The position numbers were made by a program, and so were the translations under genes. From Halomicronema hongdechloris C2206 (GTDB lineage Bacteria > Cyanobacteriota > Cyanobacteriia > Phormidesmidales > Phormidesmidaceae), in NCBI RefSeq assembly GCF_002075285.3, contig NZ_CP021983.2:3420001-3452000 (forward strand): 32,000 bases of DNA, in the 5' to 3' direction. Positions 7,311-32,000 of the stretch are shown piece after piece. A model generated the notes under the pieces. The model ran no database searches, had not been told where the DNA came from, and worked only from the letters and a program-made list of their open reading frames with translations. Numbering within the stretch: the first letter of the stretch is position 1; every line of letters starts with the position of its first letter.

Positions 7311-7355
7311 TTACCGATCGCTCCATCACAACCCTGGATCACACCATAGCGTCAA

Positions 7356-8523: not shown

Positions 8524-8665
8524 GGGGACACCGGAAAATGGAGAGCCACTTCATCCTACCGTAGCGATTGCCGTCGGGGCAGCCATCCCACCGGTAATTG
8601 ACCGCTGTATCGGTCAGGGGGCAGGCCAGTAGTTGATAGAATGAAGCCGGTATAGTTTATCCAGT

Positions 8666-9067
8666 ATGCCCGGACGAACCCGCAGCCAAAACCAGGTATT
8701 GGCCGCCCTGAAGCAGCTCGATCAGCCCATTTCTGCCCAGGATCTCTATATGGAGCTACGCAATGGCGGCGGTACCCTCGGCTTAGCAACGGTCTATCGA
8801 GCCCTAGATGCCCTGAAGCTAGAAGGCGCTGTACAGGTGCGCACCCTACCAACCGGGGAGTCTCTCTACAGCTTGCCCCAAGAGGATAGGCACCATCTTA
8901 CCTGCCTGCAGTGCGGTCAATCCATTGCCATCGACGAGTGTCCCGTTCACGACCTGGAGCAGCAGCTGAACCGGGCCCACCACTTTCGCATCTTCTACCA
9001 CACCCTAGAATTCTTCGGCCTCTGCCCTCGCTGTCAGATGGATGCGGCCCAGGCGGCTGGTTCTTGA
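8666..9067 (+). CDS. Fur-family transcriptional regulator (possibly Zur/FurB-like)
   Basis: Winged-helix 'ISAQDLYMELRNGGGTLGLATVYRALDALKLEG', metal-site 'HHLTCLQCG...' and C-terminal 'CPRC'. The subfamily cannot be decided without a search. Confidence 0.85.
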   Translation: MPGRTRSQNQVLAALKQLDQPISAQDLYMELRNGGGTLGLATVYRALDALKLEGAVQVRTLPTGESLYSLPQEDRHHLTCLQCGQSIAIDECPVHDLEQQLNRAHHFRIFYHTLEFFGLCPRCQMDAAQAAGS

Positions 9068-9079
9068 CGTGTATAGCAA

Positions 9080-9117
9080 AAGGCAGAAGGCAGAAGGCAG
9101 AAGGCAGAAGGCAGAAG
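9080..9117. repeat. Heptamer tandem repeat (AAGGCAG) x ~5.4
   Basis: Read directly: aaggcagaaggcagaaggcagaaggcagaaggcagaag. STRR-like cyanobacterial short tandem repeat. Confidence 0.95.
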
Positions 9118-9307
9118 CATGCCCTGAGCTAGTCGAACAGTCGAAGGGGCAGAAGGGCTGTGCCCGTGCCAAGTAGTGAGAACTGGCCTTAGAGGATATT
9201 TGGAAAGTACCCTGCAACCTTGCTCCAGACTGGAGTCTGGCCAACAGAGTCATACGCTCTAAAACGCTTACCCTGCAGGGTTTTCAGCCGAGTTCTCAAA
9301 TGTCTTC

Positions 9308-9739
9308 TTAGCCCAGGCTGAAAGCATCTTCCAGATAATCCTGCAGCACTAGGGAATAAAGGCTCTGGGGTAAGGGTCTGTGGTGCAGGCCGATTTGGGG
9401 ATTGGTCTGGCAGGTGACCAAGGCCACATCAAAGCGGCAGGGCCACTCTTGCCATTGGGGCTGTTGGATGAGAAATAGCTGGGCGGCTCGCCACAGCTTG
9501 CGTTGCTTCTGGGGGGTGATGGCCATGAGGCCGTCGGCATCCCAATTCCCCTGGCGCCTTGTCTTGACTTCGACAAAGGCCAGCAGGGAGTCGGGTTGAC
9601 GCACTACCAGATCCAACTCGCCCCAGCGGCAATGCCACCGTTGCGCCACTAATTCGCCGCCCCGGTGCCGCAGCCAGTCGGCTACCAGTAATTCGCCTAA
9701 ACGCCCCAGATCGGCCCGTTGCGGTAATGGTATGGTCAT
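9308..9739 (-). CDS. yraN: YraN-family (UPF0102) endonuclease-like protein
   Basis: 'LGRLGELLVADWLRHRGGELVAQRWHCRWGELDLVV...LAFVEVKTRR' is the YraN signature. Confidence 0.85.
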   Translation of the reverse strand: MTIPLPQRADLGRLGELLVADWLRHRGGELVAQRWHCRWGELDLVVRQPDSLLAFVEVKTRRQGNWDADGLMAITPQKQRKLWRAAQLFLIQQPQWQEWPCRFDVALVTCQTNPQIGLHHRPLPQSLYSLVLQDYLEDAFSLG

Positions 9740-9802
9740 CGTTTGCGGCCCTGAATGCTGACCTTAGGGTAGACAGCGGCGCTAGCAAACTAACGGCAGA
9801 CT

Positions 9803-11752
9803 TCAGGAACTGGGTTCCAGGGCGTTATAGAACTCTCCTACCCAGGGCAGTTGGGCCAGATCTGCGAAGCTGACCTGGCGCTCCTGTTCTAGGTGCTGAA
9901 TCCGCCGTTTCTCGGCATAGATCTGCTGTTGGTAGTGGGCCAGTTCTTCCCGGGAGGCATGGGGGGCGGCGTTGCTCCAGAGCGCCAGGAAGTGGCGGTA
10001 ACGCTTCTCGCAGAGATTCTTTTCCATGCAGGCGGTGGCGGCCCGAATCACCAGGGGAGCCCGCAGAATATCTCGCTGGGTCTTCTCATCGAGGTGCAGC
10101 AGATACTGGGTCTGGCTCAGGGGACCGGAAAATTCAGCGATGCGATCGCGCAGAGGGGTAATCAGATCTTCGCCCGTGGCTGGTTCGTCTAATAGGCTCT
10201 GGAGATAGTGCCACAGGGCCCGATGGTGGGAAAAGCTAAATTGCAGATCCCGGTCATCTAAGGCGGCGGTCACCGTGGTGCGAAAGGCGGGGGCATGGAG
10301 AAAGATCCGCAGTAGGGCCGCCTCAGCCTGCTCTAGGGCGCTGAGGGCGCGGGGCTGCTGGGCCATGGCGTCTTGACCTTGGCCATCCCGGGACGGGCGT
10401 CGCTGGCGTCGCACCTGGGCCAGCAGGTTTTCGGCGAGCAGCGGCACTAGACGACTGTCGCCATGGCTGAAGATTTCGGCGCAGTGACGGATGTAGTGGG
10501 TGCGGGTGTCGGCGTTGGCAATCTGGCTGAGCAGGGCCACGATGGCCTGGGTGGCTTGCTGAAAGTGATCGGCTTGGCGTAGATCGCGGCCCTCTAGACT
10601 CTGCTGAATTTGCCAGTCGAGCCAGAGGGGGCTGGCCTCCAACAAGGCTCGATAGTCCTCGGCGCTATAGTGCTTGAGATAGTCGTCCGGGTCTTTGCCC
10701 TCGGGAATGGTGAGGATGCGCAACTGCACATCCCCCCGGTAGGCCATGTCGGTGACTTCACCGATGGCCCGTTCGGCCGCCCTGGTACCGGCGGCATCGG
10801 CGTCGAAGTTGAGGATGATCTGCTTGGAGTCGCTATAGCGGAGCAATTGCCGCACTTGGGCCGCGTTTAGGGCAGTGCCGAGGGCGGCGACGGTGTTGCT
10901 GATCCCGGCGGCATGGAGGGCAATGACGTCGAAGTAGCCCTCGACGACGATGGCCTGGTCTGCTTTTGCGATCGCAGCCCGAGCCAGATCCAGGCCATAG
11001 AGAGTCTTGCCCTTATCAAACAGTTCCGTATCCGGCGAATTGAGGTATTTGGGTTGGGCTGCGCCCATGGCCCGACCACCAAAACCAATCACCCGACTCT
11101 GGGCATCGCGGATGGGAATCATCAGCCGTTCACGAAACCGATCGTAATAGCCACTGCCCTTGGCGCGAGGCACAATCAGTCCTGCCTTCTCCACTAACTC
11201 CACGGGATAACGTTTCTGCTCTACCAAATAGCCATAGAGAGTCTGCCAGCCACCGGGGGCAAAGCCCAACTGAAACTGCTGAATCGTCTCTTCCCGCAGC
11301 TGTCGTTGTTGGCGCAGATAGGCCAAGGCCTCGGCTCCGTCCGACTGGCGTAGGGCATGCTCATAGAACTTGGCAGTCACGGCCAGAATCTCGAAGAGTT
11401 GCTGCCGTAGGCTGAGTTGTCGCTGTAGCTGTTGCCGCTGGGCCGGTTCCAGGGTCTTGACCGGCACCTGATACCGCTGGGCCAACTCCAACACCACATC
11501 GGCGAAGGAGCGCTTATTCAGCTCCATCAAAAACTTAAAGCCATTCCCCCCGGCCCCACAGGAAAAGCAGTAATAGAACTGCTTGCCAGGGCTGACACTA
11601 AAGCTAGGGGACTTATCGTCGTGAAACGGGCAGAGGCCGACAAAGTCTTTTCCCTGCTTTTTAAGAACCACATGCTGGGAGACAATATCGACGATATCGG
11701 CCCGTTCGCGGACCGCTTCAATGGTATCGGGATGGAGACGGGGGGTAGTCAT
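9803..11752 (-). CDS. dnaG: DNA primase
   Basis: Zn-ribbon 'CPFHDDKSPSFSVSPGKQFYYCFSCGAGGN', TOPRIM 'VVEGYFDVIALHAAG' and 'NFDADAAG'. Start placed at ATG 11752 (MTTPRLHPDTIEAV...); the longest ORF begins at 11791. Confidence 0.96.
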   Translation of the reverse strand: MTTPRLHPDTIEAVRERADIVDIVSQHVVLKKQGKDFVGLCPFHDDKSPSFSVSPGKQFYYCFSCGAGGNGFKFLMELNKRSFADVVLELAQRYQVPVKTLEPAQRQQLQRQLSLRQQLFEILAVTAKFYEHALRQSDGAEALAYLRQQRQLREETIQQFQLGFAPGGWQTLYGYLVEQKRYPVELVEKAGLIVPRAKGSGYYDRFRERLMIPIRDAQSRVIGFGGRAMGAAQPKYLNSPDTELFDKGKTLYGLDLARAAIAKADQAIVVEGYFDVIALHAAGISNTVAALGTALNAAQVRQLLRYSDSKQIILNFDADAAGTRAAERAIGEVTDMAYRGDVQLRILTIPEGKDPDDYLKHYSAEDYRALLEASPLWLDWQIQQSLEGRDLRQADHFQQATQAIVALLSQIANADTRTHYIRHCAEIFSHGDSRLVPLLAENLLAQVRRQRRPSRDGQGQDAMAQQPRALSALEQAEAALLRIFLHAPAFRTTVTAALDDRDLQFSFSHHRALWHYLQSLLDEPATGEDLITPLRDRIAEFSGPLSQTQYLLHLDEKTQRDILRAPLVIRAATACMEKNLCEKRYRHFLALWSNAAPHASREELAHYQQQIYAEKRRIQHLEQERQVSFADLAQLPWVGEFYNALEPSS

Positions 11753-11932
11753 AGCCAGGCGCAAATGCCTCACGATCGCCCTCTCGGTCATCCTCTAGGA
11801 ATAGTATGTAGAAGGCTTTTTTCTCAGCTGCTAACACTAGTCCTAGTATTCTAAGCCAATTGCATTAAATCCTGTGGACTCTGGGGCGTTCTTATTGTAG
11901 GTCATTTGTATTGATAGGGGTGGTGGGTGGAT

Positions 11933-11997
11933 GGGGAGTGCGGAGGACGGAGAGTGGAGGACGGAAAACGGAAAAACGAAGAGAGAACAGGGGACAA
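11933..11997. repeat. Purine-rich degenerate heptamer repeats (GGAGGAC/GGAGAGT/GGAAAAC)
   Basis: Read directly. 7-nt phase from 11942 for at least 5 units. Related in sequence to the 15504..15590 array. Confidence 0.7.
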
Positions 11998-12002
11998 GGT
12001 AG

Positions 12003-12021
12003 GGGCGCGGTTGCCGCGCCC
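12003..12021. other. GC-rich hairpin GGGCGCGG-TTG-CCGCGCCC
   Basis: 8-bp perfect stem, 3-nt loop, in the dnaG / CNNM divergent intergenic region. No adjacent U-tract. Confidence 0.5.
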
Positions 12022-12188
12022 AATGCAGAAAACTCAGCAGTACACGGCAATAGGCTAGGCTTTGTAGCCATTACGATGACTTGAGACAATGGTCAGCAGA
12101 GGTACCTCTCTATCTCAAAATCCTCTTCTGGAGGGCATTTTGGAGCACCTCTGGCGAGCATGATCCCATCTTTGAAGGAACTCCTGGC

Positions 12189-13508
12189 ATGTCTGCCACC
12201 AGTCTCGAATTGTTATTGATTCTGCTGCTGATTGGGCTGAATGGTGTGTTTGCGGGCTCTGAAATCGCCCTAGTGTCGTCCCGCAAGGCTCGCCTAGAAC
12301 AGCAGGCTCGCCAAGGAAAGGTGACCGCCCGCCTGGCCCTGACCCTGACGGCTCACCCCAATGACTTCCTCTCCGCGGTGCAAATCGGCATCACTCTGGT
12401 GGGCATTCTCAGTGGGGCCCTGGGAGGAGCGACGGTGGCTCGACGCCTAGGGCATTTGCTGGCTCGAGTCCCTGGGGTAGCGCCCTACAGCCAACTACTG
12501 AGTCTAGCCCTGGTGGTGGGTAGCATTACCTACCTGTCCCTGGTGCTCGGGGAACTGGTGCCCAAGCGCCTGGCCTTGAATAGCCCGGAGCGCATCGCCT
12601 GCCGAGTGGCTAGGCCCATGCACTGCTTGGCTCGCCTGACGGCCCCATTGGTGCGTCTGCTGAGTCTTTCCACGGATGGGGTGCTGAATCTGCTGGGGGT
12701 ACGGCCTTCCCAAGAGCCGTCTATCACCGAGGAAGAGATCAAGGTCTTGATGGAGCAAGGGACCGCCGCCGGGACCTTCGAGGAGTCGGAAGGGGCGATG
12801 GTCGGGCGGATCTTCCACCTAGGAGATCGATCGATCAAGGCCCTGATGACTCCCCGTACCGACATCGATTGGCTGGATCTGGAGGGAGATGATGAGACCA
12901 ATCGGCAGATTGTGATCAACAGTCCCCACTCTCGCTTCCCTGTCTGTCGAGGTAGCATCGACAATTGTTTGGGGGTAATTCGCCTGCGTAGTCTCTTGCC
13001 CGACTACTTGATGGGACAGGCTGTTGACCTGATGGAGTTGATCCAGCCTCCCCTCTACGTGGCTGAGAATGTGCGAGCCCTGAAGGTGCTGGAGATGTTT
13101 CAGGCCTCGGGTACCCACATCGCCTTGATCATGGATGAATATGGCGGCGTGGAAGGATTGGTTACCCTAAATGACTTGGTGGAAGCCATCGTCGGGGAGT
13201 TGCCCACCGTTGATGATGCCACCGAACCCATGGTAATTCAGCGGCAGGACGGCTCTTGGCTCTTGGATGGATTGCTGCCGTTGGAAGAGCTGAAGGGGAT
13301 AATGCAATGGGAGAGTCTGCCGCGGGAGAGTACCGGTGAGTATCATACCCTAGCGGGTTTTGTGCTGACCCTACTGGGGCACATTCCCACCTCTGGGGTT
13401 TCCCTGGAGTGGGAAGGGTGGCGCCTAGAGGTGGTGGATATGGACGGATGGCGGATCGACAAGGTTCTGTTAACCCCGTTGCCGCCCCCACCGGAGCAGG
13501 AGCCTTAA
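12189..13508 (+). CDS. CNNM/DUF21-CBS-CorC_HlyC family membrane protein (hemolysin-family / putative Mg/Co efflux)
   Basis: 'LLLIGLNGVFAGSEIALVSSR' DUF21 opening, CBS pair region, C-terminal 'VIQRQDGSWLLDGLLPLEEL...GWRLEVVDMDGWRIDKVLL' CorC_HlyC. Start at ATG 12189; the track ORF starts at a TTG at 12081. Confidence 0.9.
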   Translation: MSATSLELLLILLLIGLNGVFAGSEIALVSSRKARLEQQARQGKVTARLALTLTAHPNDFLSAVQIGITLVGILSGALGGATVARRLGHLLARVPGVAPYSQLLSLALVVGSITYLSLVLGELVPKRLALNSPERIACRVARPMHCLARLTAPLVRLLSLSTDGVLNLLGVRPSQEPSITEEEIKVLMEQGTAAGTFEESEGAMVGRIFHLGDRSIKALMTPRTDIDWLDLEGDDETNRQIVINSPHSRFPVCRGSIDNCLGVIRLRSLLPDYLMGQAVDLMELIQPPLYVAENVRALKVLEMFQASGTHIALIMDEYGGVEGLVTLNDLVEAIVGELPTVDDATEPMVIQRQDGSWLLDGLLPLEELKGIMQWESLPRESTGEYHTLAGFVLTLLGHIPTSGVSLEWEGWRLEVVDMDGWRIDKVLLTPLPPPPEQEP

Positions 13509-13510
13509 CC

Positions 13511-13597
13511 CCTGGTAGACTGTGGTACCAGGCTGAGCACTGGTCGTATCTAGAAGATTGACAGGCAGGGCTTGTTCTCTGCCTGGAGTGGCTCCAG
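13511..13597. terminator. Cluster of three hairpins in the convergent intergenic region (CNNM / ccmP)
   Basis: CCTGGTA-N8-TACCAGG (13511..13532, starting 3 nt after the stop), CAGGCAG-N10-CTGCCTG (13562..13585), CTGGAG-N3-CTCCAG (13583..13597). No clean U-tracts, so the terminator role is only plausible. Confidence 0.35.
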
Positions 13598-13681
13598 GGA
13601 AGCAACACAGCCGCAGGGGAGTAGGGGAAGCAAATGATCAGCCAACTGTGGCCATGGCGTACTGGTGAGTTGAGATTGACG

Positions 13682-14323
13682 CTACTCCTTACGCTGAGGC
13701 AGTTCTTGGGAGCGGCCTGATACGGTTTCCATGACGGCGATCACCGCCCGTTGAGCCGCCAGGATATCCCGTTCTTCTCCCCCTAGGTAAAGGCGGCCAA
13801 AACTGCCCACTGAGCTGATCTGCAAGATATTGATCATGGCTGCTTTTTCGGCTTCGTTGGCGGCCAGGGAGGCATAGGCCGCAGGTTCTACCTCGAAGAC
13901 GTAGAGGGTCTGACCGGCCAGGATCATATTGCCGCGGCGATTGCGGTTGATCAGCTGCACATGGTGAGGGTCGAGGTTGCGGATCACCTGGCTGGAGATA
14001 ACGCGAGGCTTGAGCCGCTCTCGATAGTGAACATCTAGGGCGCTGAGCATGGCTTGGCCCGCGGCATGAACTTCCCCTTGCTTGCTGGAATGGATCTCTA
14101 GCAAGCCATAGAGGCGTTCGACAATGAGTACCCCCGGTCGCACCACGGCGGACTTGAGGCCGATATCCATGATCCGGTTGATTTCGATGCCGGGGGAAAT
14201 TTCGATCCAGAGGGAGGCATCTCCCGGTAGTGGTAGAAACCCGAGCGATACGGTGCCCATATAGGCCGCATGCTGGGGTTGCAAATTGTCGATGTATACG
14301 TAGCTGCGCAGTTCTACACCCAA
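13682..14323 (-). CDS. ccmP: Tandem-BMC-domain carboxysome shell protein CcmP
   Basis: 213 aa. '[25 protein letters not shown]...[12 protein letters not shown]...[30 protein letters not shown]' and the length match my recollection of Synechococcus elongatus CcmP. This is memory, not a search. Confidence 0.8.
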
Positions 14324-14495
14324 GAGCTTTCCCGCCGATAGGTCCCAAGACAGTATAACGGCTGCTGGACGGCAGGCTGGTATCGGCGGCGGTAACTGGC
14401 CAGTGGGGCAGTGCCAGGGTGCCCACAGTGGCGGGGAGCCAGGGGAAATGGCAATTTCGTGGCTGTTTCAGTGGCTGTTGCAAAGGGTAGGTGGT

Positions 14496-15503
14496 TTAGG
14501 CGCAATCGGGGTCAATGAAGCGGATCCAGTCTCCGTCTACCCGTGCGATCGCACCGCCCGGCAAGGGATCACTCTGACTGCGATGCGGCGCGGTAATCAA
14601 ATGCACCACCTTGGCCACCTGCTCAAAGCCGACCTGGGCGATTTGTCGTTGCTGCAGCACCCGCCGGATCAGGCGTCGTTGCAGGGCCACATGACTCACT
14701 TGCAGCGGCGGCCGGTGTAGCCGCCGCGGTCGCCCGCCGGCATCCGCCTCCACCACTGAGGCATAGAGACTATCTACCATTGTCTCTAGGTAAGCCACCT
14801 CCGCCGCCAGCACCTCCGCCGTTTGGGCTAGGGTGTGCTCAACCCTGGGATTAAACTGCTCAGCCAGATAGGGCAGTAGATCGAGACGGATACGATTGCG
14901 AGCATAGGCCCGGTCCTGGTTAGTGCAGTCTTGCCAATGGGGCAATCCTTGCTGCCGACAAAAGGCGACGGTTTCAGCCCGGGTGATCGCCAGCAGGGGC
15001 CGCACCAGCACGATGGGTAACGGGGCCGCCGGCTGCAGAGGCCGCTGCCAGGTGAGGGCCTGTAAGCCATCGGCGCCACTGCCCCGCATCAGGTTATACA
15101 GCAAGGTTTCCGCCCGGTCCGTGGCCGTATGCCCTGTCGCTACCCGGGTGCAGCCATGATATCGAGCCAGCTGATGAAATTGGTCGTAGCGCCACTGACG
15201 AGCTGCCGCTTCACTACTCGGGGGTTGGGCCGCCGTCACGGTGTCACAGGATATGCCATGGTCGCGACACCAGGTTTCCACAAAACTGGCGTTAGCCTCG
15301 GCATCGGCCCGCCAACGATGGTTGGCATGGGCTACCACCACCCGCCACCCCCACTTGGGCCGCAAATCCCACAGCAGTTTCAGTAGGGCCATAGAATCTT
15401 GCCCCCCCGATACGGCTACCAGGCAATGGCTTCCCTGGGGCAAGAGCTGTCGCGCCTTCAAGAGGCGGTGGATATGAGCATGGAGGTCTGTCCAGTCGGG
15501 CAT
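14496..15503 (-). CDS. tilS: tRNA(Ile)-lysidine synthase
   Basis: PP-loop 'LVAVSGGQDSMALL', 'HANHRWR', 'ATGHTATDRAETLLYNLMRGSG'. Confidence 0.92.
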   Translation of the reverse strand: MPDWTDLHAHIHRLLKARQLLPQGSHCLVAVSGGQDSMALLKLLWDLRPKWGWRVVVAHANHRWRADAEANASFVETWCRDHGISCDTVTAAQPPSSEAAARQWRYDQFHQLARYHGCTRVATGHTATDRAETLLYNLMRGSGADGLQALTWQRPLQPAAPLPIVLVRPLLAITRAETVAFCRQQGLPHWQDCTNQDRAYARNRIRLDLLPYLAEQFNPRVEHTLAQTAEVLAAEVAYLETMVDSLYASVVEADAGGRPRRLHRPPLQVSHVALQRRLIRRVLQQRQIAQVGFEQVAKVVHLITAPHRSQSDPLPGGAIARVDGDWIRFIDPDCA

Positions 15504-15590
15504 GGGGGAGTGGGAGAGTGGAGAGTGAAGAGTGAAGAGTGGAGAGTGAAGGGTGGAGAGTGGGGGAGTGGGAGAGTGAAGAGTGAAGGG
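15504..15590. repeat. Heptamer tandem array (GRRGRGT; GGAGAGT/GAAGAGT) ~12 units
   Basis: Read directly, starting right after the tilS start codon. The phase is interrupted by occasional 8-nt units. Confidence 0.9.
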
Positions 15591-22336: not shown

Positions 22337-22409
22337 GCTGGTGTAGCTCAGTTGGTAGAGCAGCTGATTTGTAATCAGCCGGTCGCAGGTTCGAGTCCTG
22401 TCACCAGCT
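22337..22409 (+). tRNA. tRNA-Thr (anticodon UGU)
   Basis: Hand-folded cloverleaf: acceptor GCTGGTG/CACCAGC, D-stem GCTC/GAGC, anticodon stem GCTGA/TCAGC with loop TTTGTAA, T-arm GCAGG-TTCGAGT-CCTGT, discriminator T. CCA is not encoded. Confidence 0.93.
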
Positions 22410-23716: not shown

Positions 23717-24715
23717 CTAGGCATCATGAGAGTAATGGTGCCGCAGCAGCTGTTGCAAATCGGCGACGACACTGGCTAGAAAGTTAGGCGCATCCACCTC
23801 TAAGGCAACCCAGGCGTTAGCCCTGGGTTTTGGCTTATGGCGACGATCGATCAGCGTCTGGCCCCGCGTCAATTCTCCTTGGGTTTCAACTTGCACCGTG
23901 GCCCGACGCAGCAGTAGGGTCTCTGGGTAGAACAGGTAGCCCAAGGTGGCGGCATCGTGGACTAGAAACCCAGGACTGCCGGCGGTTTCTCGATATTGTC
24001 GGGCCGTGCTCACCATAAACTGGCAGAGATTGACTAGAAAATGGGCCAGGGGATGCTCCGGCCGAGTTTGGGCCACAAGGGTGGCCATGGTCTCGGTAAA
24101 TACCAGTTGCCGGGTCACGTCTAGGGGGAGCATCACCACATCATTGCGGCTATTGAAGACAACTTGGGCGGCTTCCGGGTTAAACCAGACATTGAATTCA
24201 GCCTGAGCCGTGACGTTACCAGGGCCCTGAATGGCTCCAGCCATGACCACAAGTTCCCGAGCCTGCTGCAGGATGCCGGGCCGCTTCGCTTCTGCCGCCG
24301 CCAGGTTAGTCAGGGGGCCGATGGCAATCAGGGTGATTTCGCCGGGATTGGCACTTAGCTGCTCGATCAGTAGGTCATCGGCTGCAGGTGCGATCGCAAA
24401 TTCATGGGACGGTGGCGGCAGTGTTTGGGAGAGGTAGCCCATGCCATCGCTGCCATGGATATGGCTGGCATCCTCGCTGCCTTGGGAGAGAAGCACCCCC
24501 CGACCTAGAGGTACGGAACCATACCCCGCTAAATTCAACACCTGGCTGGCATTGGCAAAGGTCTGGGCGGCGGCGACATTGCCCTGGGTCGTGGTCACCG
24601 CCACCAACTCGGCTCGGCCCTGATTGACCAGGCTCAGCAGCCATAGCAAGGCGAAGATGTCATCACCGCCGGGGTCGGTGTCAAGCAATAGTTTAGGGAC
24701 TGCCTGGAAAGTCAT
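23717..24715 (-). CDS. Inosine-uridine-preferring nucleoside hydrolase family protein
   Basis: 'LLLDTDPGGDDIFALLWL' (DxDxxxDD Ca-binding motif), 'IAIGPLTNLA', 'HDAATLGY'. Confidence 0.9.
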   Translation of the reverse strand: MTFQAVPKLLLDTDPGGDDIFALLWLLSLVNQGRAELVAVTTTQGNVAAAQTFANASQVLNLAGYGSVPLGRGVLLSQGSEDASHIHGSDGMGYLSQTLPPPSHEFAIAPAADDLLIEQLSANPGEITLIAIGPLTNLAAAEAKRPGILQQARELVVMAGAIQGPGNVTAQAEFNVWFNPEAAQVVFNSRNDVVMLPLDVTRQLVFTETMATLVAQTRPEHPLAHFLVNLCQFMVSTARQYRETAGSPGFLVHDAATLGYLFYPETLLLRRATVQVETQGELTRGQTLIDRRHKPKPRANAWVALEVDAPNFLASVVADLQQLLRHHYSHDA

Positions 24716-24851
24716 GGTCGGATCTGCATGGCGCCATGGGTATCAACTGGGGGCATGTAGGAGGTCATTAGCGAGACACTTCGTGGCAAACGACAGCATT
24801 TTTGTCAGCCGCAACCCTCAAGATTTTGCAAAAGCACCCAATTCCCAGTCT

Positions 24852-25030
24852 TCCTTGAATAGGTTCACGGCTTCCAGAAATATGCAGGGATGTAGCAAGA
24901 AGATCCCTCCATACCATGACGGCAACTCTATACTTTCGGCAAGGGTTAGCGCTAGTGGTTATCCTCTCGGGCCTCACCACCGGACAAGCTGCCTTAGCCT
25001 GTTTCTCATTGCCTCCAAGCGAGAGTAGAG
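24852..25030 (+). repeat. Copy 1 of a ~178-bp dispersed direct repeat (5' leader + signal-peptide codons)
   Basis: Hand-aligned to 26126..26301 at roughly 85-90% identity. Includes the hairpin AGGGAT-N11-ATCCCT (24886..24908), 7 nt before ATG 24916. Confidence 0.85.
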
Positions 25031-25554
25031 AAGAAACTATTGAGATCTATGCCACCAAGGCCAACACCATCTTTCTCGGCCAGCCCATCCGGGTCAGTAG
25101 AGATGAGCCCCCGATCTGGCTATGGCCTCATAACAATTTTGGGGTGATCGTGATCGAGTTTGAGGCGTCTCGGGTCTGGAAGGGGAGCGTCAAGGCGCGC
25201 TATCTCATCCGAGACTTCGATGATTCGTGTAGCACTTTCTACGACTACGTCTGGCAGCAGGTTGATGGTGAGTGGCAAGCTGTTGATGAGTACGTGATTC
25301 CGGTAGCCGACAGACAGGAGATGGTAATGCTAGCGAACCGGCCTCTACCTGCTCTGGGGCGGTTGCACACCCTGATACCAGTGGATCAATCTGCCCCGTC
25401 GGTTCAGGAACTCACCCAACTCTTAGGAGAGGCACAGCCTGTGGATGACGCCTCGTTCCCATTCAGTCGATATGTCGTCATGATGGCAGGCTTAACGTTG
25501 TTGGTCATGCTCATGGTGGGGCTGACGCTGCGCTCTAGGCGGGCCTCCCGTTGA
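24916..25554 (+). CDS. Secreted/anchored protein, TIMP/NTR-like OB-fold candidate with C-terminal TM helix
   Basis: Signal peptide 'MTATLYFRQGLALVVILSGLTTGQAALA|C', mature N-terminal Cys, 'CFSLPPSESREETIEIYATKANTIFLGQPIRV', 'ASRVWKGSVKARYLIRDFDDSCSTFYDY', C-terminal 'VVMMAGLTLLVMLMVGLTL'. The family assignment is from memory only. Confidence 0.7.
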   Translation: MTATLYFRQGLALVVILSGLTTGQAALACFSLPPSESREETIEIYATKANTIFLGQPIRVSRDEPPIWLWPHNNFGVIVIEFEASRVWKGSVKARYLIRDFDDSCSTFYDYVWQQVDGEWQAVDEYVIPVADRQEMVMLANRPLPALGRLHTLIPVDQSAPSVQELTQLLGEAQPVDDASFPFSRYVVMMAGLTLLVMLMVGLTLRSRRASR

Positions 25555-25673
25555 CCGATGTTAACTCCGTTCGCTGATCACGATCCCCTAATGACCTGAA
25601 ATCATTAAATCTGTGATTGGCAGCCTAGACAGTCCCTAGACCCGTTCGTCTATTCTCATGATGACTTCCTAGC

Positions 25674-25703
25674 TTACAAGTCTTCTTGCCTTCAGTCTAT
25701 AGT
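25674..25703 (+). promoter_or_regulatory. Candidate sigma70-type promoter (-35 TTACAA, 18-nt spacer, -10 TATAGT) giving a near-leaderless mRNA
   Basis: Hexamers read directly. The -10 ends 8 nt before ATG 25712. Confidence 0.3.
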
Positions 25704-25711
25704 TAACCCAC

Positions 25712-26083
25712 ATGGCAACGTACCTTTCTCGAAATGGAGTTTCTATCCGCTTGCCAAAGGAACGATGGCAACACATTGTTCAGCGCCATGCCGACATCGC
25801 AGGGAAGCAAAATGTTGTTTTAGAGTCGGATACAGCAAGTATGGCCATAGCCAATTATCAAGCGGCACAACCCTATCTCCGGGTGCTGCCATTACTGCAA
25901 GAGCTGCCGAAGCAAGCGTTTTTCATGGTTTATGACGCCGAGGCAGATGTGTTGTACATCGATTTTGCCAATCCCCCGCATTCGGCAGTAGATAGCGAAC
26001 TGACGGAGGATGATATTGTGGTGCGCTATGGCGAGGATGATGCAGTGGTGGGGCTAACTGTTCTCGATGCCAGCAAGCGATAA
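25712..26083 (+). CDS. DUF2283-like protein fused to an N-terminal fragment of a putative partner toxin gene
   Basis: C-terminal 80 aa from the internal ATG 25841 ('MAIANYQAAQPYL...YDAEADVLYIDFANPPHSAVDSE...VVGLTVLDASKR') look like the cyanobacterial DUF2283 family. The first ~40 aa ('LSRNGVSIRLPKERWQHIVQRHADI') resemble the N-terminus of the small proteins usually encoded just upstream of such genes. Confidence 0.6.
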   Translation: MATYLSRNGVSIRLPKERWQHIVQRHADIAGKQNVVLESDTASMAIANYQAAQPYLRVLPLLQELPKQAFFMVYDAEADVLYIDFANPPHSAVDSELTEDDIVVRYGEDDAVVGLTVLDASKR

Positions 26084-26125
26084 GTCTCTATGCTTCAGGC
26101 GTCAGTGTTTTCTGAGTGGGGAACA

Positions 26126-26301
26126 TCCCTGAATAAGTTCGTGACTACCAGAAATATAAAGGGATGTAGCGAGATCCCTTCCTACCATGACGACAACTCT
26201 ATACTTTCGGCAAGGGTTAGCGCTGGCGGTTATCCTCTCGGGTCTCACCACCGGACAACCTGCCTGAGCCTGTTCCTCATTGTCCCCAAGCGAGAGCAGA
26301 G
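26126..26301 (+). repeat. Copy 2 of the ~178-bp dispersed direct repeat
   Basis: See 24852..25030. The hairpin AGGGAT-N8-ATCCCT (26160..26179) is again 7 nt before an ATG (26187). Confidence 0.85.
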
Positions 26302-26462
26302 CAGTGCCGGATGCACCAACGGCAAAGCTGATGACGGAGTTCTATCGGCAGGTGTCTCGAGGGCAGGCCTAGGCCCTGCGCCGGGCGATGCTGATGACGA
26401 TGCAGACCCATCCCGATCCCAAGGATTGGGCCGCCTTTACGCTCATCGGTGAAGCAGAATAA
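26187..26462 (+). pseudogene. Chimeric pseudogene: TIMP-like leader (26187..26300) fused in frame to a CHAT-domain C-terminus (26301..26462), with two nonsense codons
   Basis: A single frame reads MTTTLYFRQGLALAVILSGLTTGQPA*ACSSLSPSESR|AVPDAPTAKLMTEFYRQVSRGQA*ALRRAMLMTMQTHPDPKDWAAFTLIGEAE*. The second half aligns with the last ~53 aa of the 931-aa CHAT protein (AVPDVPTAQLMTAFYRHIAQGQTKAQALRQAMLATMQATPDPVDWAAFTLIGAAE). TGA at 26265, TAG at 26370. Confidence 0.8.
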
Positions 26463-26634
26463 TCAGTAAAGGCTGAGATGCGATCGCAAGTTCCAGCGAG
26501 CCAAAAGGATTGTCATCCCTCCCTTTCCCCGCTAAAGCTTGACGATATTGCTGCACCACCTGTAGCGAAGCATCGCCTCCGGTGGCGGCACTGTGTACCT
26601 GCTTCCCGCGAGGCGATCGCCTTGCGACTCACCC

Positions 26635-29600
26635 TTACCCCATGACCCGAATCGTCACAGTCACCTGAGTGCCATTGTCATCCGTCACCTGAATCGTATC
26701 AACCCCAGGCGTCGTCCCCGCCGTGTAGCGACCGCTGCTGTCGATGCTGCTGCCCTCAGACTCCCGATTGACAATGCTAAAGTCAAACGGACTCACCCCA
26801 CTTTGAACCGTAACGTTGGCCGTTGCCCCAGCCGCAACCTGAACCGGATTAATCGCAGCCGTCATCGGACGCACCATCACCTGCACCCTGGCCCGTCCTC
26901 CGTCACCATCCCGGTCAGTAATCGTGATCGTGTCCGCAACCTGAGCATTTTCACTGCCAGCGGTATAGCGCCCCGTCTCGTCGACTTCTGGTCCACTCGA
27001 ATTGGGCACGCTGACGACATAGCGATAGGGCGGTACCCCTCCCGTCACCGTAATTTGCGCCGTTCCACCACCATTCACCGTGGCGGGATTAATTACCGCA
27101 GTAATCGGCTTAACCTTGATGTCAAAGGGATAGTCTTTGCAGCCATAGTCGAAGGTAATGGTTTCGATTTCATCTGCTGCAATGGGGCCTTTGCCGGCGA
27201 TGAATTGCAGTTCTGACCGGTTAAATTGACTGCCTGGAATTTTAGTCACCAATGGACTTCCCGTCCCCACCGAAACCGTCGCACTATCAGGCAAATGATC
27301 GATCGTGAACGTGACTACGCCACCCACAAAGATTTCCTGCGTATCGGGAGTAATAGTCGGTTCATCAACGGTGATTTGAATCTCTTTCACCAAATAGTCC
27401 CGGGGGTTAGGGCCACTGGTGGTTAAGCCGTTGTCACCATAGGTTGAAAACACCGCCAGGCTGGCATCATATCTCGCAATCAACTCCAAAGTGTCCGTTC
27501 CCGCGGTGTCGCCAGCCGTGTACGTCAACCCGTTGACGCTACCGCCAGAGGCCAATACCCCCCCCTTAGCTTGGAGATGATAGCTTGCTTTTTCATCCCC
27601 TTTGAGTTTGATCGTTTGGCGCTGGCACACAAAGACCGCAGTCTCTGCGTCAACTTCAATAGCTTTAACCGTAATGTCTACCGTTTCACTCGTGGGCGGG
27701 GTACTGAAGCTGCCTTCTCCTTTCACCGTAAATGTTCCCGGCGTCAGGGAATGGAAGTAGAATGCTGAACCATTGATCACCTGAACGGGGGGAGTATTGT
27801 TTCGGTCAAGATTAATGCTATGGGGCAACTGATTCGGAGCGAGGGTGCCTGGCACCATTCCTGCTCCAGTCGGAACATTGTTGACCGCTGGGGTGATGCT
27901 GAAATCCACCGTAATTGGGGTGAAGGGAGGGCCACCCGTGGCTGGGTTAGGTGCAAAGACCACGTCAGCCCCAGTTACGCGGGTAAATTCGCCCACATAG
28001 ATCTCTGTTTTCTCGGCTTCTACCACCGTCTTATAGACATTGCCAGATTGGGCGCCGGCATTGCGCTCCAGCGCAGAATTAGTCTGTCCGCCGTTGATCA
28101 CCATGTCCCATTCATACACCCCCACACCGGGTACCCAATTATTCAGATCCCAGGCGTTGGAGATAATGGCAACCCACTTGTAGGGCAAGACACTAGACCA
28201 CCAGGTGGAAGGATTCACCCAGTTTTGTACGTCATCCGGGTCCACGTTGCCGCCACTCACCGCCCAGAGTAAGCCCCCGATCAACCAGGTGAGTCCGCCG
28301 ATGCTAATCTTTTCCCACCACTTATCCCCTTCGCTCAGATCCTCTTCTTGAATTAAGCGGACAATCAGGGGAACCGGCAGGGCATGGAAGAGCGGTCCCA
28401 ACAGCGCGTACTGGAACACATGCTGCATTTCGTGGCTATAGAGCGCTTCTGGGCGGTTGAGTTGCACGTCGGGAGCCTTGGGCACGATGTAGCGAGAGTC
28501 GGTGTCGGCTTCATTGCCACTGTCTTCACTGCTTTCGATGTAGACGATGTTGCCCATCGTGTAGGCTCGCCAAACAAAGAAGCTGCCGTTGAGCATCGTC
28601 CACGGCACGCCCTGCCGGGCTGAAGCGGTGAAGTTGATCCAGAAATGGGCCCGCTCATCAGCATCAAAGGGATTGGCAGGATTAAGACGCCCCCAGGGAT
28701 ACCACTTACGGTCAAAATCGAGGCGAAAGAGGGATTCAAAAAACCAGGGAATCCAGCCGATAATTTCCATCAGCAGGTTACCAATGACCAGAATTAGTCC
28801 GATGGTCGTGTTCGGTAGGGCCCAAGTAAGGGAACTGGGAATCGTCAGGAAAAACCACCAGGCACTGTGACCGTCTAGGTCGAGGTTGTTAATCGGGTCG
28901 TTTAGGCAGAAAACGTAGCGGTTTTGGCTGTCGGTTTGTTGCAACCAGTCTTGCAGCGCAGTGGACCGCGGTTTGCGATCGCCCCAAAAGTCTCGCTCCG
29001 GTTGAAACAACAGTCGCCAGTCATCGGCGCCAAAGGTATAGCTGTCGGGGGTGAGAAATCGACCCGTGGCCGGATCATAGTCCCGACTACCAAAGTCGTA
29101 GAAGCCAGTCACCACATCCAGCGGTTTACGGGCAAACAATGGGCTGCCCGTCGTGCCAAAGGGGGAGGGGTTGCCTTGCCAGGTGACTTGTCTCGTTTCG
29201 TTCGTAACTAACCAGACCGAACCCAAGTGGTCGGTGCCATAGAAGTCCACGGCAGTCTCTCCCACGGGGCCGCGAATGCATCCCAGACATTGCACCCCAA
29301 CCCAGAGATAGGTGGCGGTGACTCGACCCTGGGCATCGGTTTCGGCCAGCAGTTGATCGTTGCAGTCGTAGTGAAACAGCGTGATTTGGTCACCCATTTG
29401 CCGTTTGACCCGGCGGCCCAAACCGTCATAGGTGTAGTGAATCACTCGCCCATCTGGGAGCTGAACGGTGGTTAACTGCCCTTCCACATCGTAGGTGTAG
29501 CGGCTGAGTTGGTTTCCCTGGCGACGAGCGATGCAGTTGCCGTCTAGGTCGTAGTCAAAGTCAACTCGATTGCCCTCAGGGGAGGTCACTTGCAGGAGGC

Positions 29601-30564
29601 GATCGCCCCCTCCTGTCCCCACGTCATAGCAATAGCGAGTTACTCCGGTGTGATCTGCAACGGTTCTGCGGTTACCGTGGGCATCGTAGGTGTAGCGGGT
29701 AACCTGTCCAAGCGAATCTTGCCAGGTGGTCAACCGTCCTTCACCGTCGTAACCAAAACGTTGTGGCCCGATTTGCTCAATTTGCAGATCCCGGTAGATA
29801 TAGGGCCAATCTACTAGGAGTGTTCCCTCAGAAGTTTGGATAACGATCCGGGCGGGTTTGCCTTGGTCGTCTAGCAATCGCTGTCGGACGATGCCATTGG
29901 CAAAGCGCCAGGTTTGACCCGAGAGGGTGGCATAGGGGGTGCCGTGCTCGGTTTGGACGTGTAGCGTCTGGGTTGGTGAGTCGGGGTTGACCTCATAGCG
30001 GTAGTGCAACCATTGGTCTGATCCGGCAGGTCGTAGTCCGATACAACGTCCGGCGTCATCGTAGCGGTAGTCGCTTTGAAACGTTACGCCGTCGATGGTC
30101 TGTTGGATGGTACTGACCCGCTGCTGCGGATCGAACTGAACCACGGTGACACAGGTCGGGGTAGCAAAACACACCCAACCCAGTCCGAAATCAGTGATGG
30201 TGGTGTGTCCTCGGCGATCGCTGAGGCAACGCAACCGATTTTGAGCGTCGTAGCTGTAGTGCAGCACCCGTCCTGCTGCTGTCTGACGGCGAATCAGGTT
30301 ATCGCGGGCGTCGTAGGCAAAGGTCTGGTGGGTTCCATTGGGATAGTCTACGGCGATTAATCGTCCCCGATCGTCGTAGCGGTAGGTGGGGGAATCGGCA
30401 CGGTCATTCAACCCTTTCTGGGACGTTGCCGTTGACGATTGATCCGGGGTTAGCTGATGGGACTGAGCCCGGGTCGGCTGCGTCTGACCCGAGGGCGTCA
30501 CGGGGGACAAATTCATGCCCAGGACTGAAATGACTTTTTCCATCGAAGGTTCCCTCAGCAGCAT
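26635..30564 (-). CDS. RHS/YD-repeat protein with atypical C-terminal membrane / HExxH / Ig-like extension
   Basis: About 11 YD repeats (YRYDDRGRL, YSYDAQNRL, YTYDAHGNR, YTYDVEGQL, YTYDGLGRR...). RHS core elements 'GTDHLGSV', 'RDYDPATGRFLTPD', 'NRYVFCLNDPINNLDLDGH' (28867..28923). Then hydrophobic Trp-rich segments, 'HEMQH' (28420..28434) and repeated beta-rich Ig-like modules. Alternative start ATG 30543 has a GAGG 9 nt upstream. Confidence 0.9.
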   Translation of the reverse strand: MLLREPSMEKVISVLGMNLSPVTPSGQTQPTRAQSHQLTPDQSSTATSQKGLNDRADSPTYRYDDRGRLIAVDYPNGTHQTFAYDARDNLIRRQTAAGRVLHYSYDAQNRLRCLSDRRGHTTITDFGLGWVCFATPTCVTVVQFDPQQRVSTIQQTIDGVTFQSDYRYDDAGRCIGLRPAGSDQWLHYRYEVNPDSPTQTLHVQTEHGTPYATLSGQTWRFANGIVRQRLLDDQGKPARIVIQTSEGTLLVDWPYIYRDLQIEQIGPQRFGYDGEGRLTTWQDSLGQVTRYTYDAHGNRRTVADHTGVTRYCYDVGTGGGDRLLQVTSPEGNRVDFDYDLDGNCIARRQGNQLSRYTYDVEGQLTTVQLPDGRVIHYTYDGLGRRVKRQMGDQITLFHYDCNDQLLAETDAQGRVTATYLWVGVQCLGCIRGPVGETAVDFYGTDHLGSVWLVTNETRQVTWQGNPSPFGTTGSPLFARKPLDVVTGFYDFGSRDYDPATGRFLTPDSYTFGADDWRLLFQPERDFWGDRKPRSTALQDWLQQTDSQNRYVFCLNDPINNLDLDGHSAWWFFLTIPSSLTWALPNTTIGLILVIGNLLMEIIGWIPWFFESLFRLDFDRKWYPWGRLNPANPFDADERAHFWINFTASARQGVPWTMLNGSFFVWRAYTMGNIVYIESSEDSGNEADTDSRYIVPKAPDVQLNRPEALYSHEMQHVFQYALLGPLFHALPVPLIVRLIQEEDLSEGDKWWEKISIGGLTWLIGGLLWAVSGGNVDPDDVQNWVNPSTWWSSVLPYKWVAIISNAWDLNNWVPGVGVYEWDMVINGGQTNSALERNAGAQSGNVYKTVVEAEKTEIYVGEFTRVTGADVVFAPNPATGGPPFTPITVDFSITPAVNNVPTGAGMVPGTLAPNQLPHSINLDRNNTPPVQVINGSAFYFHSLTPGTFTVKGEGSFSTPPTSETVDITVKAIEVDAETAVFVCQRQTIKLKGDEKASYHLQAKGGVLASGGSVNGLTYTAGDTAGTDTLELIARYDASLAVFSTYGDNGLTTSGPNPRDYLVKEIQITVDEPTITPDTQEIFVGGVVTFTIDHLPDSATVSVGTGSPLVTKIPGSQFNRSELQFIAGKGPIAADEIETITFDYGCKDYPFDIKVKPITAVINPATVNGGGTAQITVTGGVPPYRYVVSVPNSSGPEVDETGRYTAGSENAQVADTITITDRDGDGGRARVQVMVRPMTAAINPVQVAAGATANVTVQSGVSPFDFSIVNRESEGSSIDSSGRYTAGTTPGVDTIQVTDDNGTQVTVTIRVMG

Positions 30565-30758: not shown

Positions 30759-32000
30759 CTAAGTTGGAGCCGCAGCCAGCATTTCAGACAAAGCCGTCTC
30801 GACATCCAACAATACCCGTTCCAGATCTTCCCGAATGTGCGCCACCAGCCGATCGAGTTGGTCGAGAATGTCTTGGGGGTCAAGGGTGGTGGCTAGGCGA
30901 ATCTGTTCAAAGGCATCATTGAGGGGCGCTTGTAGATTGAGCGGATTGAGCAGGTCGAGTGCCGATAGGATCTCGCCCCACTGCTCAGAAATGGTAGTTT
31001 GCAACCCCCTAAGACTGGTAATAATGCCGTCAATGATGTTCGTAAATCCCTGGGTTTTGCTGCTCAGGTCCAGTTCGGCCAGAAGGGTATCCGGATGGAG
31101 ACTGTCCAAAGCCGTCACCAACGGTGTGTACACGTCAGCCTCTAAATCGGCAATGATTCCCGCCGGATTGAGGGCTTCGAGCTGAGCCTTGAGCGGATTG
31201 TAGATTTCGCCAAAGGCTTGCTTCAGAAGCGTGGGTAAAAAGCCCGTGGTGTTGGCACTCAAGCGATCGAGAATGGGGGGTAACTCGGCCACAAAGACAT
31301 CGCCAAACTGGGCTGTTTTCACGGCAAATTGTTCGTACACTTGGTTGACTTCGTCCGCCAATCGTCCCGGATTGAGGATTTCAAGGTGGGCCTGAATATT
31401 CTCCAGACTTAGTGTTTCTTGCAGAAAAGGCGGAATCAGCCCGGTTAACTGTTCACTCAAAGGACCAAACGCAGCCGCCAATTTGCCCACATTCAAGCCA
31501 GTGGTCAGGCGTAGGGTGTTGCGATTGAGACTTTGGAATGTGGGGCGAAAGTCAGCCAGGGTCAAGTCTGGATTGAGGCTGGGAATTGTTCCGGCAATTT
31601 GGAAATAGTCGGTTTGCAAGGCGGCGGGCACTTGTACTATATCGATACTATCCAAAGCCAACAGCAGTTCCCCGTAGGCACTGTAAACATCGGCGACGAG
31701 ATCGAACCGTTGGGTAAAGTCAAAGCGGGCCAGTTGTTGTTGTAAATCCGAGGCAATTTGGGCGGAGAGATTGAGGGGAGCGATCGTCGCTAAAGCCTCC
31801 ACAAATTGGCCCTTTAGATGATTAAAAGCATCGACTAAGGTGGCTTCAGGAATTTGGGTTAAAGCTCCAACAACTTTGTTGTAAACATCTTCGACCGGAC
31901 GGAGAATATCCCCTGGCATAAATCCTAGGGTGTCATCTGCCGGGTCGGGCGTATCTGGGTCTAGATAAGTCTTCAGATCACCGGCACTGTTAAACCCATC
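30759..32000 (-). CDS. C-terminal part of a larger helical-repeat hypothetical protein (5' end outside the window)
   Basis: The frame stays open from 31919 to the window edge (hand translation ...DGFNSAGDLKTYLDPDTPDPADDTLGF-MPGDIL...). At least 7 copies of an (L/I)(N/H/D)P-xx-(L/I) motif spaced ~30-45 aa apart. No catalytic motif recognised. Confidence 0.75.
   Translation of the reverse strand, partial: DGFNSAGDLKTYLDPDTPDPADDTLGFMPGDILRPVEDVYNKVVGALTQIPEATLVDAFNHLKGQFVEALATIAPLNLSAQIASDLQQQLARFDFTQRFDLVADVYSAYGELLLALDSIDIVQVPAALQTDYFQIAGTIPSLNPDLTLADFRPTFQSLNRNTLRLTTGLNVGKLAAAFGPLSEQLTGLIPPFLQETLSLENIQAHLEILNPGRLADEVNQVYEQFAVKTAQFGDVFVAELPPILDRLSANTTGFLPTLLKQAFGEIYNPLKAQLEALNPAGIIADLEADVYTPLVTALDSLHPDTLLAELDLSSKTQGFTNIIDGIITSLRGLQTTISEQWGEILSALDLLNPLNLQAPLNDAFEQIRLATTLDPQDILDQLDRLVAHIREDLERVLLDVETALSEMLAAAPT

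Follow-up and report, generated by a model that had tools for sequence, protein, structure and literature searches.

A divergent zincin-like domain behind the RHS core of a Halomicronema hongdechloris protein: a probable remote relative of DUF4157 in a candidate cargo of contractile injection systems

The domain DUF4157 (Pfam family PF13699, now named eCIS_core, 'eCIS core domain'; another name is PVC-metallopeptidase) is a core marker of extracellular contractile injection systems (eCIS), where it occurs in or next to effectors encoded at the 3' ends of operons (PMC8213781). It is the most specific marker of eCIS effectors, and its function is still unknown (PMC8213781, PMC11297309). The PVC-metallopeptidase of Zhang et al. 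(2012) is defined by the pattern HExxHxxQ-E; it has three strands and three helices, with the histidines on helix 2 and the glutamate on helix 3, and has already been reported at the C-terminus of RHS-repeat toxins (PMC3482391). Several families of metallopeptidase toxins (Tox-MPTase1-5, HopH1) are known behind RHS repeats (PMC3482391). Here we consider a gene encoding an RHS protein in a stretch of 32,000 nucleotides from the cyanobacterium Halomicronema hongdechloris C2206 (contig NZ_CP021983.2, positions 3,420,001 to 3,452,000), below called the window. An original prediction, made from the letters alone, had noticed a DUF4157-like HExxH motif between putative transmembrane helices in the span 28030..28866, corresponding to residues 567-845 of this protein.

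With a probability of about 0.6, residues 567-865 are a divergent member of the lineage of zincin-like metallopeptidases, with DUF4157 as the nearest described relative, placed behind the RHS core of a cargo or effector protein associated with contractile injection systems (CIS). The protein consists of an N-terminal motif with a low-complexity linker, a short RHS region, the zincin-like domain and beta-rich C-terminal repeats, in this order:

26635..30564, minus strand: the whole open reading frame (ORF) of 1309 aa, encoding the RHS protein with the zincin-like domain
30385..30543, minus strand: residues 8-60, motif M-x-[KR]-x-I-S-x-[FL]-G-[ML]-x-L specific for class I homologues (see below), then about 45 residues rich in S, T, Q and P, from the sequence
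29143..30384, minus strand: residues 61-474, YD/RHS repeats (Pfam RHS_repeat, 7.6e-33, 112.7 bits with a cut-off of 22; TIGR01643, 9.9e-24)
28867..29142, minus strand: residues 475-566, RHS-associated core (TIGR03696) ending in NDPINNLDLDGH
27970..28866, minus strand: residues 567-865, conserved DUF4157-like domain of zincin type (58 homologues, alignments, AlphaFold2 model)
28723..28860, minus strand: residues 569-614 within this domain, hydrophobic helical hairpin with the turn W581-x-x-P-N-T586 (AlphaFold2, hydrophobicity scan, alignment)
28537..28569, minus strand: residues 666-676, RAYTMGNIVYI, predicted beta-hairpin aligned with 'AYTVGxDVVF' of DUF4157 (AlphaFold2, hhalign)
28411..28434, minus strand: residues 711-718, HEMQHVFQ (HExxHxxQ), on the predicted helix 704-726
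28129..28344, minus strand: residues 741-812, helical insert holding the fourth and fifth hydrophobic stretches of the original prediction (AlphaFold2, alignments)
28057..28068, minus strand: residues 833-836, ERNA, invariant Glu and conserved Ala on the predicted helix 831-840, candidate third zinc ligand
26638..27969, minus strand: residues 866-1309, beta-rich repeated modules, Ig/SprB-like, conserved in class I homologues (Pfam SprB, 7.8e-05, below the cut-off)

An exhaustive search of 1.84 billion cluster representatives yielded 58 homologues of the domain at E <=1e-3 and 30 at E <=1e-10; a word-indexed search gave merely 2, then 8 short fragments. In the sources these proteins are called merely 'RHS repeat-associated protein' and the like, and their named hosts include Kovacikia minuta, Rubrobacter, Herpetosiphonaceae, Solirubrobacteraceae and Actinomycetes. 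Reading of the sequences revealed three architectures. Class I is the type seen in the window, with a short RHS region, a contiguous domain of about 310 aa and Ig-like repeats. Class II proteins have 1700-2300 aa, the blocks of the domain being split by inserts of about 600 and 100 aa, and some carry other C-terminal domains. Class III has a minimal domain of about 190 aa right behind ..DPNGH, which often ends the protein at ..EQDARAHGG and is otherwise followed by variable domains. Among the regions behind the domain are a PLD-like pair of HxK motifs in P0021 (2283 aa, class II), a tyrosinase-like domain in P0038/P0183 (1574 aa; P0038, of class II, begins directly with the hairpin and has no RHS region) and, in P0056, a region named peptidoglycan-binding by NCBI.

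Translation places HEMQH at residues 711-715 (28420..28434, minus strand), as originally reported, and all peptide strings quoted at that time are present in the protein. The two strings said to lie 35 aa apart are in fact separated by 27; a figure of about 35 fits the stretch from where the TxGN hairpin ends up to H711. Conservation was counted in alignment A1 (42 sequences, all three architectural classes). The motif residues H711 (41/41), E712 (41/41) and H715 (42/42) are invariant, which answers the call for a homologue alignment made in the original prediction and discards non-conservation of HExxH, and Q718 is kept in 41 of 42. Downstream, the conserved positions are G723 (42/42), P724 (39/42), P730 (40/41), G815 (40/40), E833 (41/41) and A836 (40/41). 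Upstream of the motif these are W581 and T586 (both 31/31), E600 (28/31), S648 and R650 (both 28/29), T669 (28/29), G671 (28/28) and N672 in the hairpin around T669-G671. A chance occurrence of HExxH was rejected because of this strict conservation. The alignment indicates that the motif is real and functionally constrained and that residues 567-865 are part of an unannotated family.

Scans of the whole protein with Pfam and NCBIfam gave RHS matches only. A Pfam scan of the sub-region (24,736 models, E <=10) produced a single match, to PF13699 (11.6 bits, E 0.32; residues 703-719, profile positions 59-75 of 79). When all 42 family members were scanned, PF13699 was matched by six (best E 0.0091) and DUF6782 by two, and neither these members nor the window region matched Pfam Tox-MPTase, HopH1, M48, M50 or M56 at E up to 10. 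For comparison of alignments, genuine PF13699 proteins were retrieved with a consensus sequence (the 120 listed of 614 matches at E <=1e-5 were all labelled PF13699), and 36 such proteins formed alignment A4. Aligned by hhalign, A1 and A4 were related with a probability of 74.8% (P 2.6e-5) for the full alignment and 82.3% (P 1e-5, score 36.0; scores 36-40 over runs) for the core sub-alignment, the scores of controls being 7.6-14.7 for 30 column-shuffled alignments and 11.5 for a reversed one. At mact 0.1 the family string r-AYTlGN-vif is in register with AlAYTvG-dVVF of DUF4157, with an insert of about 18 columns.

Thus the AYTxGxxIxF beta-hairpin upstream of, and collinear with, the HExxH helix is represented by RAYTMGNIVYI, HExxHxxQ on the active-site helix by residues 711-718, and the glutamate on the following helix (HExxHxxQ-E) by E833 on helix 831-840, or by E181 on helix 179-188 of the minimal domain. 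The ExxA motif of the family (ERNA or EQDA) also resembles ExEA(D/E) strings found downstream in some DUF4157 proteins. By these profile comparisons the window domain is probably a remote relative of DUF4157, below the family threshold. Hence, of the originally proposed resemblance to DUF4157, remote kinship stands, with both blocks in register and E833 in place, and membership at the Pfam threshold does not. The accompanying statement that a DUF4157-like module after an RHS core is unusual was too strong, given the precedent of Zhang et al. 2012 (PMC3482391).

The AlphaFold2 model of the window domain (316 aa, 61 alignment rows) has a pLDDT of 81.1 and a pTM of 0.81; that of the minimal domain of P0041 (190 aa) has 85.5 and 0.81, and the order of elements in it is the same. 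Helices 569-580 and 583-614 are predicted to form the N-terminal hairpin and are followed by strands 643-648, 653-659, 668-670, 673-675, 692-694 and 697-702, by helix 704-726 with HExxH, by several further helices and by helix 831-840 with E833. Both models run from the hairpin through four to six strands to the HExxH helix and then the Glu helix, a predicted order compatible with a zincin. The helical insert 741-812 is absent from the minimal domains of class III and also from P0010 and P0014. In such an arrangement the zinc would be bound by H711 and H715 on helix 704-726 and by E833 as third ligand, with E712 acting as catalytic base; the beta-hairpin around T669-G671-N672 may serve as the substrate-binding edge of the sheet. 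A third ligand downstream of HExxH, for which the original prediction had suggested a search, thus has a candidate in E833.

The same prediction had placed the motif between Trp-rich putative transmembrane helices, with the second histidine and the residues after it at or inside one of them. Membrane-helix propensity was estimated in 19-residue windows with a Hessa-type insertion scale and the Kyte-Doolittle scale. The only segment resembling a membrane helix is TIGLILVIGNLLMEIIGWI (residues 587-605), with a dG of about +1.6 kcal/mol and a Kyte-Doolittle value of 2.03; ISIGGLTWLIGGLLWAVSG follows with +2.3 kcal/mol, and the Hessa-type scan gave no other window with a local minimum below +6. 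The transmembrane assignment therefore fails for four of the five segments, and AlphaFold2 predicts all five as helical parts of a single compact domain. The second histidine and the residues after it lie on the predicted active-site helix 704-726 and not on a membrane helix of their own. The near-invariant E600 is situated in the middle of helix 583-614, inside the membrane-like segment. In other class I proteins the equivalent of 587-605 has dG values from -0.7 to +1.5, in classes II and III mostly from +2 to +5 (a few of class II are lower).

It is very improbable that the protein is an integral-membrane metalloprotease of the HtpX/M48, M56 or site-2-protease type, with true transmembrane helices and HExxH and Glu at or in the bilayer. 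The layout does resemble that of HtpX/M48, namely a hydrophobic hairpin, strands, HExxH, hydrophobic segments and ExxA; helix 587-605 spans -0.7 to +1.6 kcal/mol within class I, and the canonical DUF4157 profile, searched against PDB sequences, weakly matches the M48 protease BepA (E 0.02), as well as thermolysin (E 0.1). However, the single borderline segment carries E600, its equivalents in classes II and III score mostly +2 to +5, and segments 4 and 5 are wholly missing from the minimal domains. Matches to Pfam M48, M50 and M56 are absent even at E 10, the predicted alpha/beta fold is compact (pTM 0.81), and the domain follows some 560 residues of soluble RHS region in a protein that has no signal sequence. 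According to the model, the zincin-like domain is mostly a folded domain of soluble type, its hydrophobic segments being mostly packing helices, and the membrane-embedded interpretation is largely unsupported. In the cyanobacterial class the N-terminal hairpin 569-614 has sufficient hydrophobicity for membrane activity, and it may have a membrane role after release.

The link to contractile injection systems comes from the neighbourhood. Upstream of the RHS gene lies the end of another gene:

30762..32000, minus strand: partner gene, C-terminal 412 residues, running off the end of the window; helical-repeat protein, Baculo_PEP_C-like (homology)

Matches to these 412 residues lie in the C-terminal parts of proteins, about 1100-2100 aa long, whose genes stand immediately before the RHS gene in loci L002, L003 (Solirubrobacteraceae) and L004 (Actinomycetes). 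A search for loci with the class I alignment gave three genome loci; the class II loci L006 and L007, in frameshift-ridden long-read assemblies, contribute no context. In Kovacikia minuta CCNUW1 (L008) the order is Baseplate_J, three ORFs, two Peptidase_S74 genes, two ORFs, a gene for an 1106-aa protein and the RHS gene. In L009 it is Sheath_initiator, Baseplate_J, four ORFs, an 1103-aa protein and the RHS gene, and in L010 Phage_sheath_1C, four ORFs, an 1115-aa protein, the RHS gene, a 368-aa protein, Phage_base_V and a 110-aa protein. The 1115-aa protein is a tail-length tape measure (phrog_1272, 2.7e-19), and PHROGs identify the genes past the RHS gene as baseplate hub, baseplate assembly protein (spike) and PAAR. 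In L002, Baseplate_J and tail-fibre phrogs are found upstream. In L010 the RHS-zincin gene is inside the structural block (6637-15525), preceded by the tape-measure gene and followed by those for hub, spike and PAAR; in L008, L009 and L002 the pair of tape-measure and RHS genes comes after baseplate and fibre genes.

In front of each class I gene examined stands one for a tape-measure homologue of about 1100 aa, and the adjacency is strict in all six loci (L002, L003, L004, L008, L009, L010). CIS genes accompany the homologues in L002, L008, L009 and L010, and the window shows the tape-measure-like partner only. Synteny in the homologous loci thus indicates that the RHS-zincin gene is a fixed downstream neighbour of a tape-measure gene in a contractile-tail (CIS) cluster. 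The eCIS association, which could not be seen by the original prediction, is borne out by the contractile-tail genes beside class I genes in homologous loci, and this neighbourhood fits the DUF4157 literature (PMC8213781). RHS is not mentioned in the two main large eCIS surveys.

Several observations weigh against the proposed assignment. The window domain does not reach the PF13699 gathering threshold (11.6 bits, the threshold being 22), and at default settings hhalign aligned only 26 columns around the HExxH helix, a motif common to many zincins. Foldseek found nothing significant, and no zincin match of note, in PDB (best E 1.7 for the 316-aa model and 2.7 for the 190-aa minimal model) or in BFVD (best E 0.59), so that the search for a zincin fold suggested at the outset gave no match; searches of PDB sequences with hidden Markov model profiles of the family also gave no matches. 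E600 is an alternative zinc-ligand candidate to E833. The CIS link rests on synteny in homologous loci, because the window ends before any CIS structural gene, and in the actinobacterial loci L003 and L004 only the tape-measure-like partner is recognisable upstream. Finally, the toxicity of Cgo1 is independent of its DUF4157 metalloprotease motif (PMC11297309), and DUF4157 has been published as dispensable for AlgoCIS cargo loading; on these two grounds a catalytic role is not established even for canonical DUF4157.

Some of these points would suit an ordinary polymorphic RHS toxin with its own, independent toxin domain of zincin type, which would have only a generic HExxH helix and no specific kinship to DUF4157, CIS being one of several delivery contexts. 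Indeed, the confident hhalign region is the HExxH helix only, the PF13699 match is below the threshold, many class III proteins end with the domain, which is the classic position of a toxin, and Tox-MPTase1-5 and HopH1 set a precedent behind RHS repeats (PMC3482391). We consider this unlikely, as no Tox-MPTase, HopH1 or other peptidase model was matched and PF13699 is the sole recurrent match (6/42). Moreover, Q at +3 past the second histidine, the TxG(N/D)..[IV].F hairpin and the ExxA helix all agree with DUF4157 and the PVC-metallopeptidase, contractile-tail clusters are present in 4/4 class I loci with readable context, and the window has no immunity-like gene downstream on the same strand.

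The strict adjacency in 6/6 loci could also reflect a non-catalytic, adaptor- or chaperone-like module of DUF4157 type that links the protein with a CIS's tape measure or spike complex and keeps HExxH for a structural metal. A small DUF4157 protein of Streptomyces binds spike-complex proteins and also a tape-measure-like effector, at its coiled-coil N-terminus (bioRxiv 2025.11.06.686954). The toxicity of Cgo1 does not depend on the metalloprotease motif, and a role as adaptor or chaperone has been suggested (PMC11297309). On the other hand, sequences sharing only 30-35% identity all keep E712 (41/41), both histidines and E833, as expected of an active enzyme, and such a non-catalytic module seems quite improbable.

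In the RHS part, the match to TIGR03696 (Rhs_assc_core) reaches 43.4 bits, above the cut-off of 32.5, which identifies the region as an RHS core. NDPINNLDLDGH ends at residue 566 and corresponds to the canonical ..DPxGL autoproteolysis motif; the terminal motif here is D-x-x-G-H instead of DPxGL. Positions D556, P557, D562 and G565 are kept in 29-31 of 30-31 aligned homologues. In canonical RHS proteins the cleaved C-terminal region begins directly behind the core motif, and the zincin-like domain starts at the residue right after it. The RHS part has only about 450-550 aa, both in the window protein and in the homologues whose N-terminal part was read. The full-length RHS core NF041261 was matched with 55.5 bits over profile positions 559-703 only (cut-off 2000 bits, about 1260 positions). 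Known closed RHS shells have about 1200 aa, and the RHS region of the window protein would be too short for a closed shell.

The domain being most likely a module of a CIS-associated cargo or effector, the following scheme may be suggested. The protein would be loaded into a CIS or associated with it, and the RHS core is predicted to cleave itself before S567 (..DLDGH566|S567). The domain would then be the N-terminus of the released fragment, since it begins exactly at the predicted autoproteolysis site. The peptidase might process its own polypeptide in cis, the neighbouring tape measure, or a target protein after ejection. Members ending with the domain would use it in the toxin position, and in members with variable domains behind it (PLD-like, tyrosinase-like, Ig-like arrays) it would occupy the position of a releasing peptidase. 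A bolder and rather doubtful version is a two-gene CIS module of cyanobacteria, Actinomycetota and relatives, in which a half-size RHS protein travels with the tape measure as lumen- or tip-loaded cargo. The fragment left by cleavage would start with the cryptic DUF4157-like peptidase, which would act following ejection, by processing the tape measure or setting free the C-terminal modules, and the membrane-active hairpin would insert into the target membrane.

The true start of the protein is likely M8 (30543), because the N-termini of homologues read MEKVIS.. or MQKVIS... N-termini like that of the window protein are also found in homologues P0003, P0005, P0006, P0010 and P0014 and in L002, and those of classes II and III differ from the class I motif. 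This motif with its S/T/Q/P-rich stretch recalls the disordered N-terminal loading sequences of eCIS cargo. At the C-terminal end, the module VRPMTAxxxP..GVxPFxF..SxGSxIDxxGxYTAG occurs in two copies. The protein closes with two tandem modules of about 85 aa (residues about 1142-1309, window 26638-27150; pattern ..P[IM]TA.I.P..V..G.TA..TV..GV.P[YF].[YF]......S.G..[VI]D..GRYTAG..), which have only a weak match to the SprB repeat. Antisense ORFs within the gene, among them 27820..28272 (plus strand) and 28365..28739 (minus strand, in a different frame), were dismissed as shadows cast by the long ORF; what matches them are the antisense frames of homologous genes.

Within the window, no immunity-like gene follows the RHS gene on the same strand, and there is no candidate for one, since the interval 24715-26635 contains no same-strand ORF of plausible size. 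The neighbours in this interval are a DUF2283 gene, an ORF of 212 aa with a hydrophobic N-terminus and a nucleoside hydrolase gene. Exact matches of encoded proteins to DnaG (ASC72302.1), RihA (ASC72314.1) and the DUF2283 protein (ASC72316.1) assign the window to the chromosome of H. hongdechloris C2206. PADLOC gave no defence-system match. Shortly downstream of the RHS gene lie two direct copies of a repeat of about 180 nt (24852-25033 and 26126-26304), 82-90% identical and 1.27 kb apart, which enclose the 212-aa ORF (24916..25554) along with the DUF2283 gene; the repeat has no match in Rfam and gives look-alike peptide tails to the ORFs 24624..25028 and 26090..26452. At about 4 kb from the RHS gene's end there is a tRNA gene (22337-22409, plus strand; Rfam RF00005, 74 bits). 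From 20 kb onward the GC content is lower, about 0.52-0.56 instead of about 0.57-0.63, a change that might mark the edge of an acquired region.

That a DUF4157-type domain can stand behind RHS repeats was already in the literature. The new element is an unannotated family of its own, for which neither PDB nor BFVD contains a structural neighbour and which, across phyla, is tightly linked to the tape-measure genes of CIS-like clusters. Since this divergent form escapes the Pfam model, surveys based on Pfam would miss such cargo, and eCIS surveys may undercount cargo of DUF4157 type. The RHS gene is strictly paired with the tape-measure gene and in one locus stands between it and the gene for the baseplate hub; this points to a specific partner or substrate for the peptidase and to a delivery route for RHS proteins in phyla that have no type VI secretion (T6SS). 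If the two-gene module is real, RHS proteins would be bona fide cargo of contractile systems other than T6SS, and the enigmatic DUF4157 domain would gain a testable substrate. The domain is a reasonable target for structure determination, as both models are confident and have no structural neighbour.

Among known systems, M48 peptidases (HtpX, BepA, Ste24) and other gluzincins resemble the window family in three respects: both have HExxH, a Glu farther along in an ExxA(D) helix, and hydrophobic helices on either side of the catalytic core. The family differs from them in having no Pfam M48 match and no PDB match by sequence or structure, and only one borderline membrane-like helix; thus the signs of an integral-membrane metalloprotease of the M48 HtpX-like or M50 kind (several membrane-helix-like segments by the scales used, a Pfam M48, M50 or M56 match) were not found.

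The RHS/YD toxins (T6SS Rhs effectors, the Tc toxin TcB-TcC, WapA) have the same YD repeats, TIGR03696 core, terminal DPxxxxDxxG[HL] motif and variable C-terminal region immediately behind it. In contrast to them, the window protein combines an RHS region of about 450-550 aa with 740 aa behind the core, and has neither an N-terminal PAAR, VgrG, LXG or signal peptide nor an adjacent immunity gene. The hosts of the family (cyanobacteria, Actinomycetota, Chloroflexota) generally have no T6SS.

The Streptomyces effector Tme (BN159_7576) unites DUF4157, transmembrane helices, a tape-measure region and a nuclease in one polypeptide (PMC11126660). Like Tme and Sle1/SLIV_17110, the window system has a DUF4157-type module with hydrophobic or transmembrane helices, coupled to CIS tape-measure-related proteins genetically and, in the Streptomyces systems, also physically (PMC11126660; bioRxiv 2025.11.06.686954). 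Compared by description only, it differs from Tme in having the tape measure in a gene of its own upstream and the DUF4157-like module in one polypeptide with RHS and Ig-like repeats.

Closest is DUF4157 itself, which has HExxHxxQ on a helix, the A-[YF]-T-x-G-x-x-[IV]-x-F beta-hairpin upstream and a conserved ExxA helix downstream. Like the class I homologues of the window protein, it lies in contractile-injection-system loci, and like the family it stands either N-terminal to variable toxin domains or C-terminal behind RHS repeats (PMC3482391, PMC8213781). The window family differs in that an insert of 27 aa separates the hairpin from the HExxH helix, and in having an additional N-terminal hydrophobic helical hairpin with a near-invariant Glu and extra strands. 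The distance from the second His to the downstream Glu is 118 residues in the window protein and 36 in the minimal form, whereas in canonical DUF4157 it is about 25-35. Canonical DUF4157 follows a disordered N-terminal loading sequence, whereas the window domain is placed behind an RHS core.

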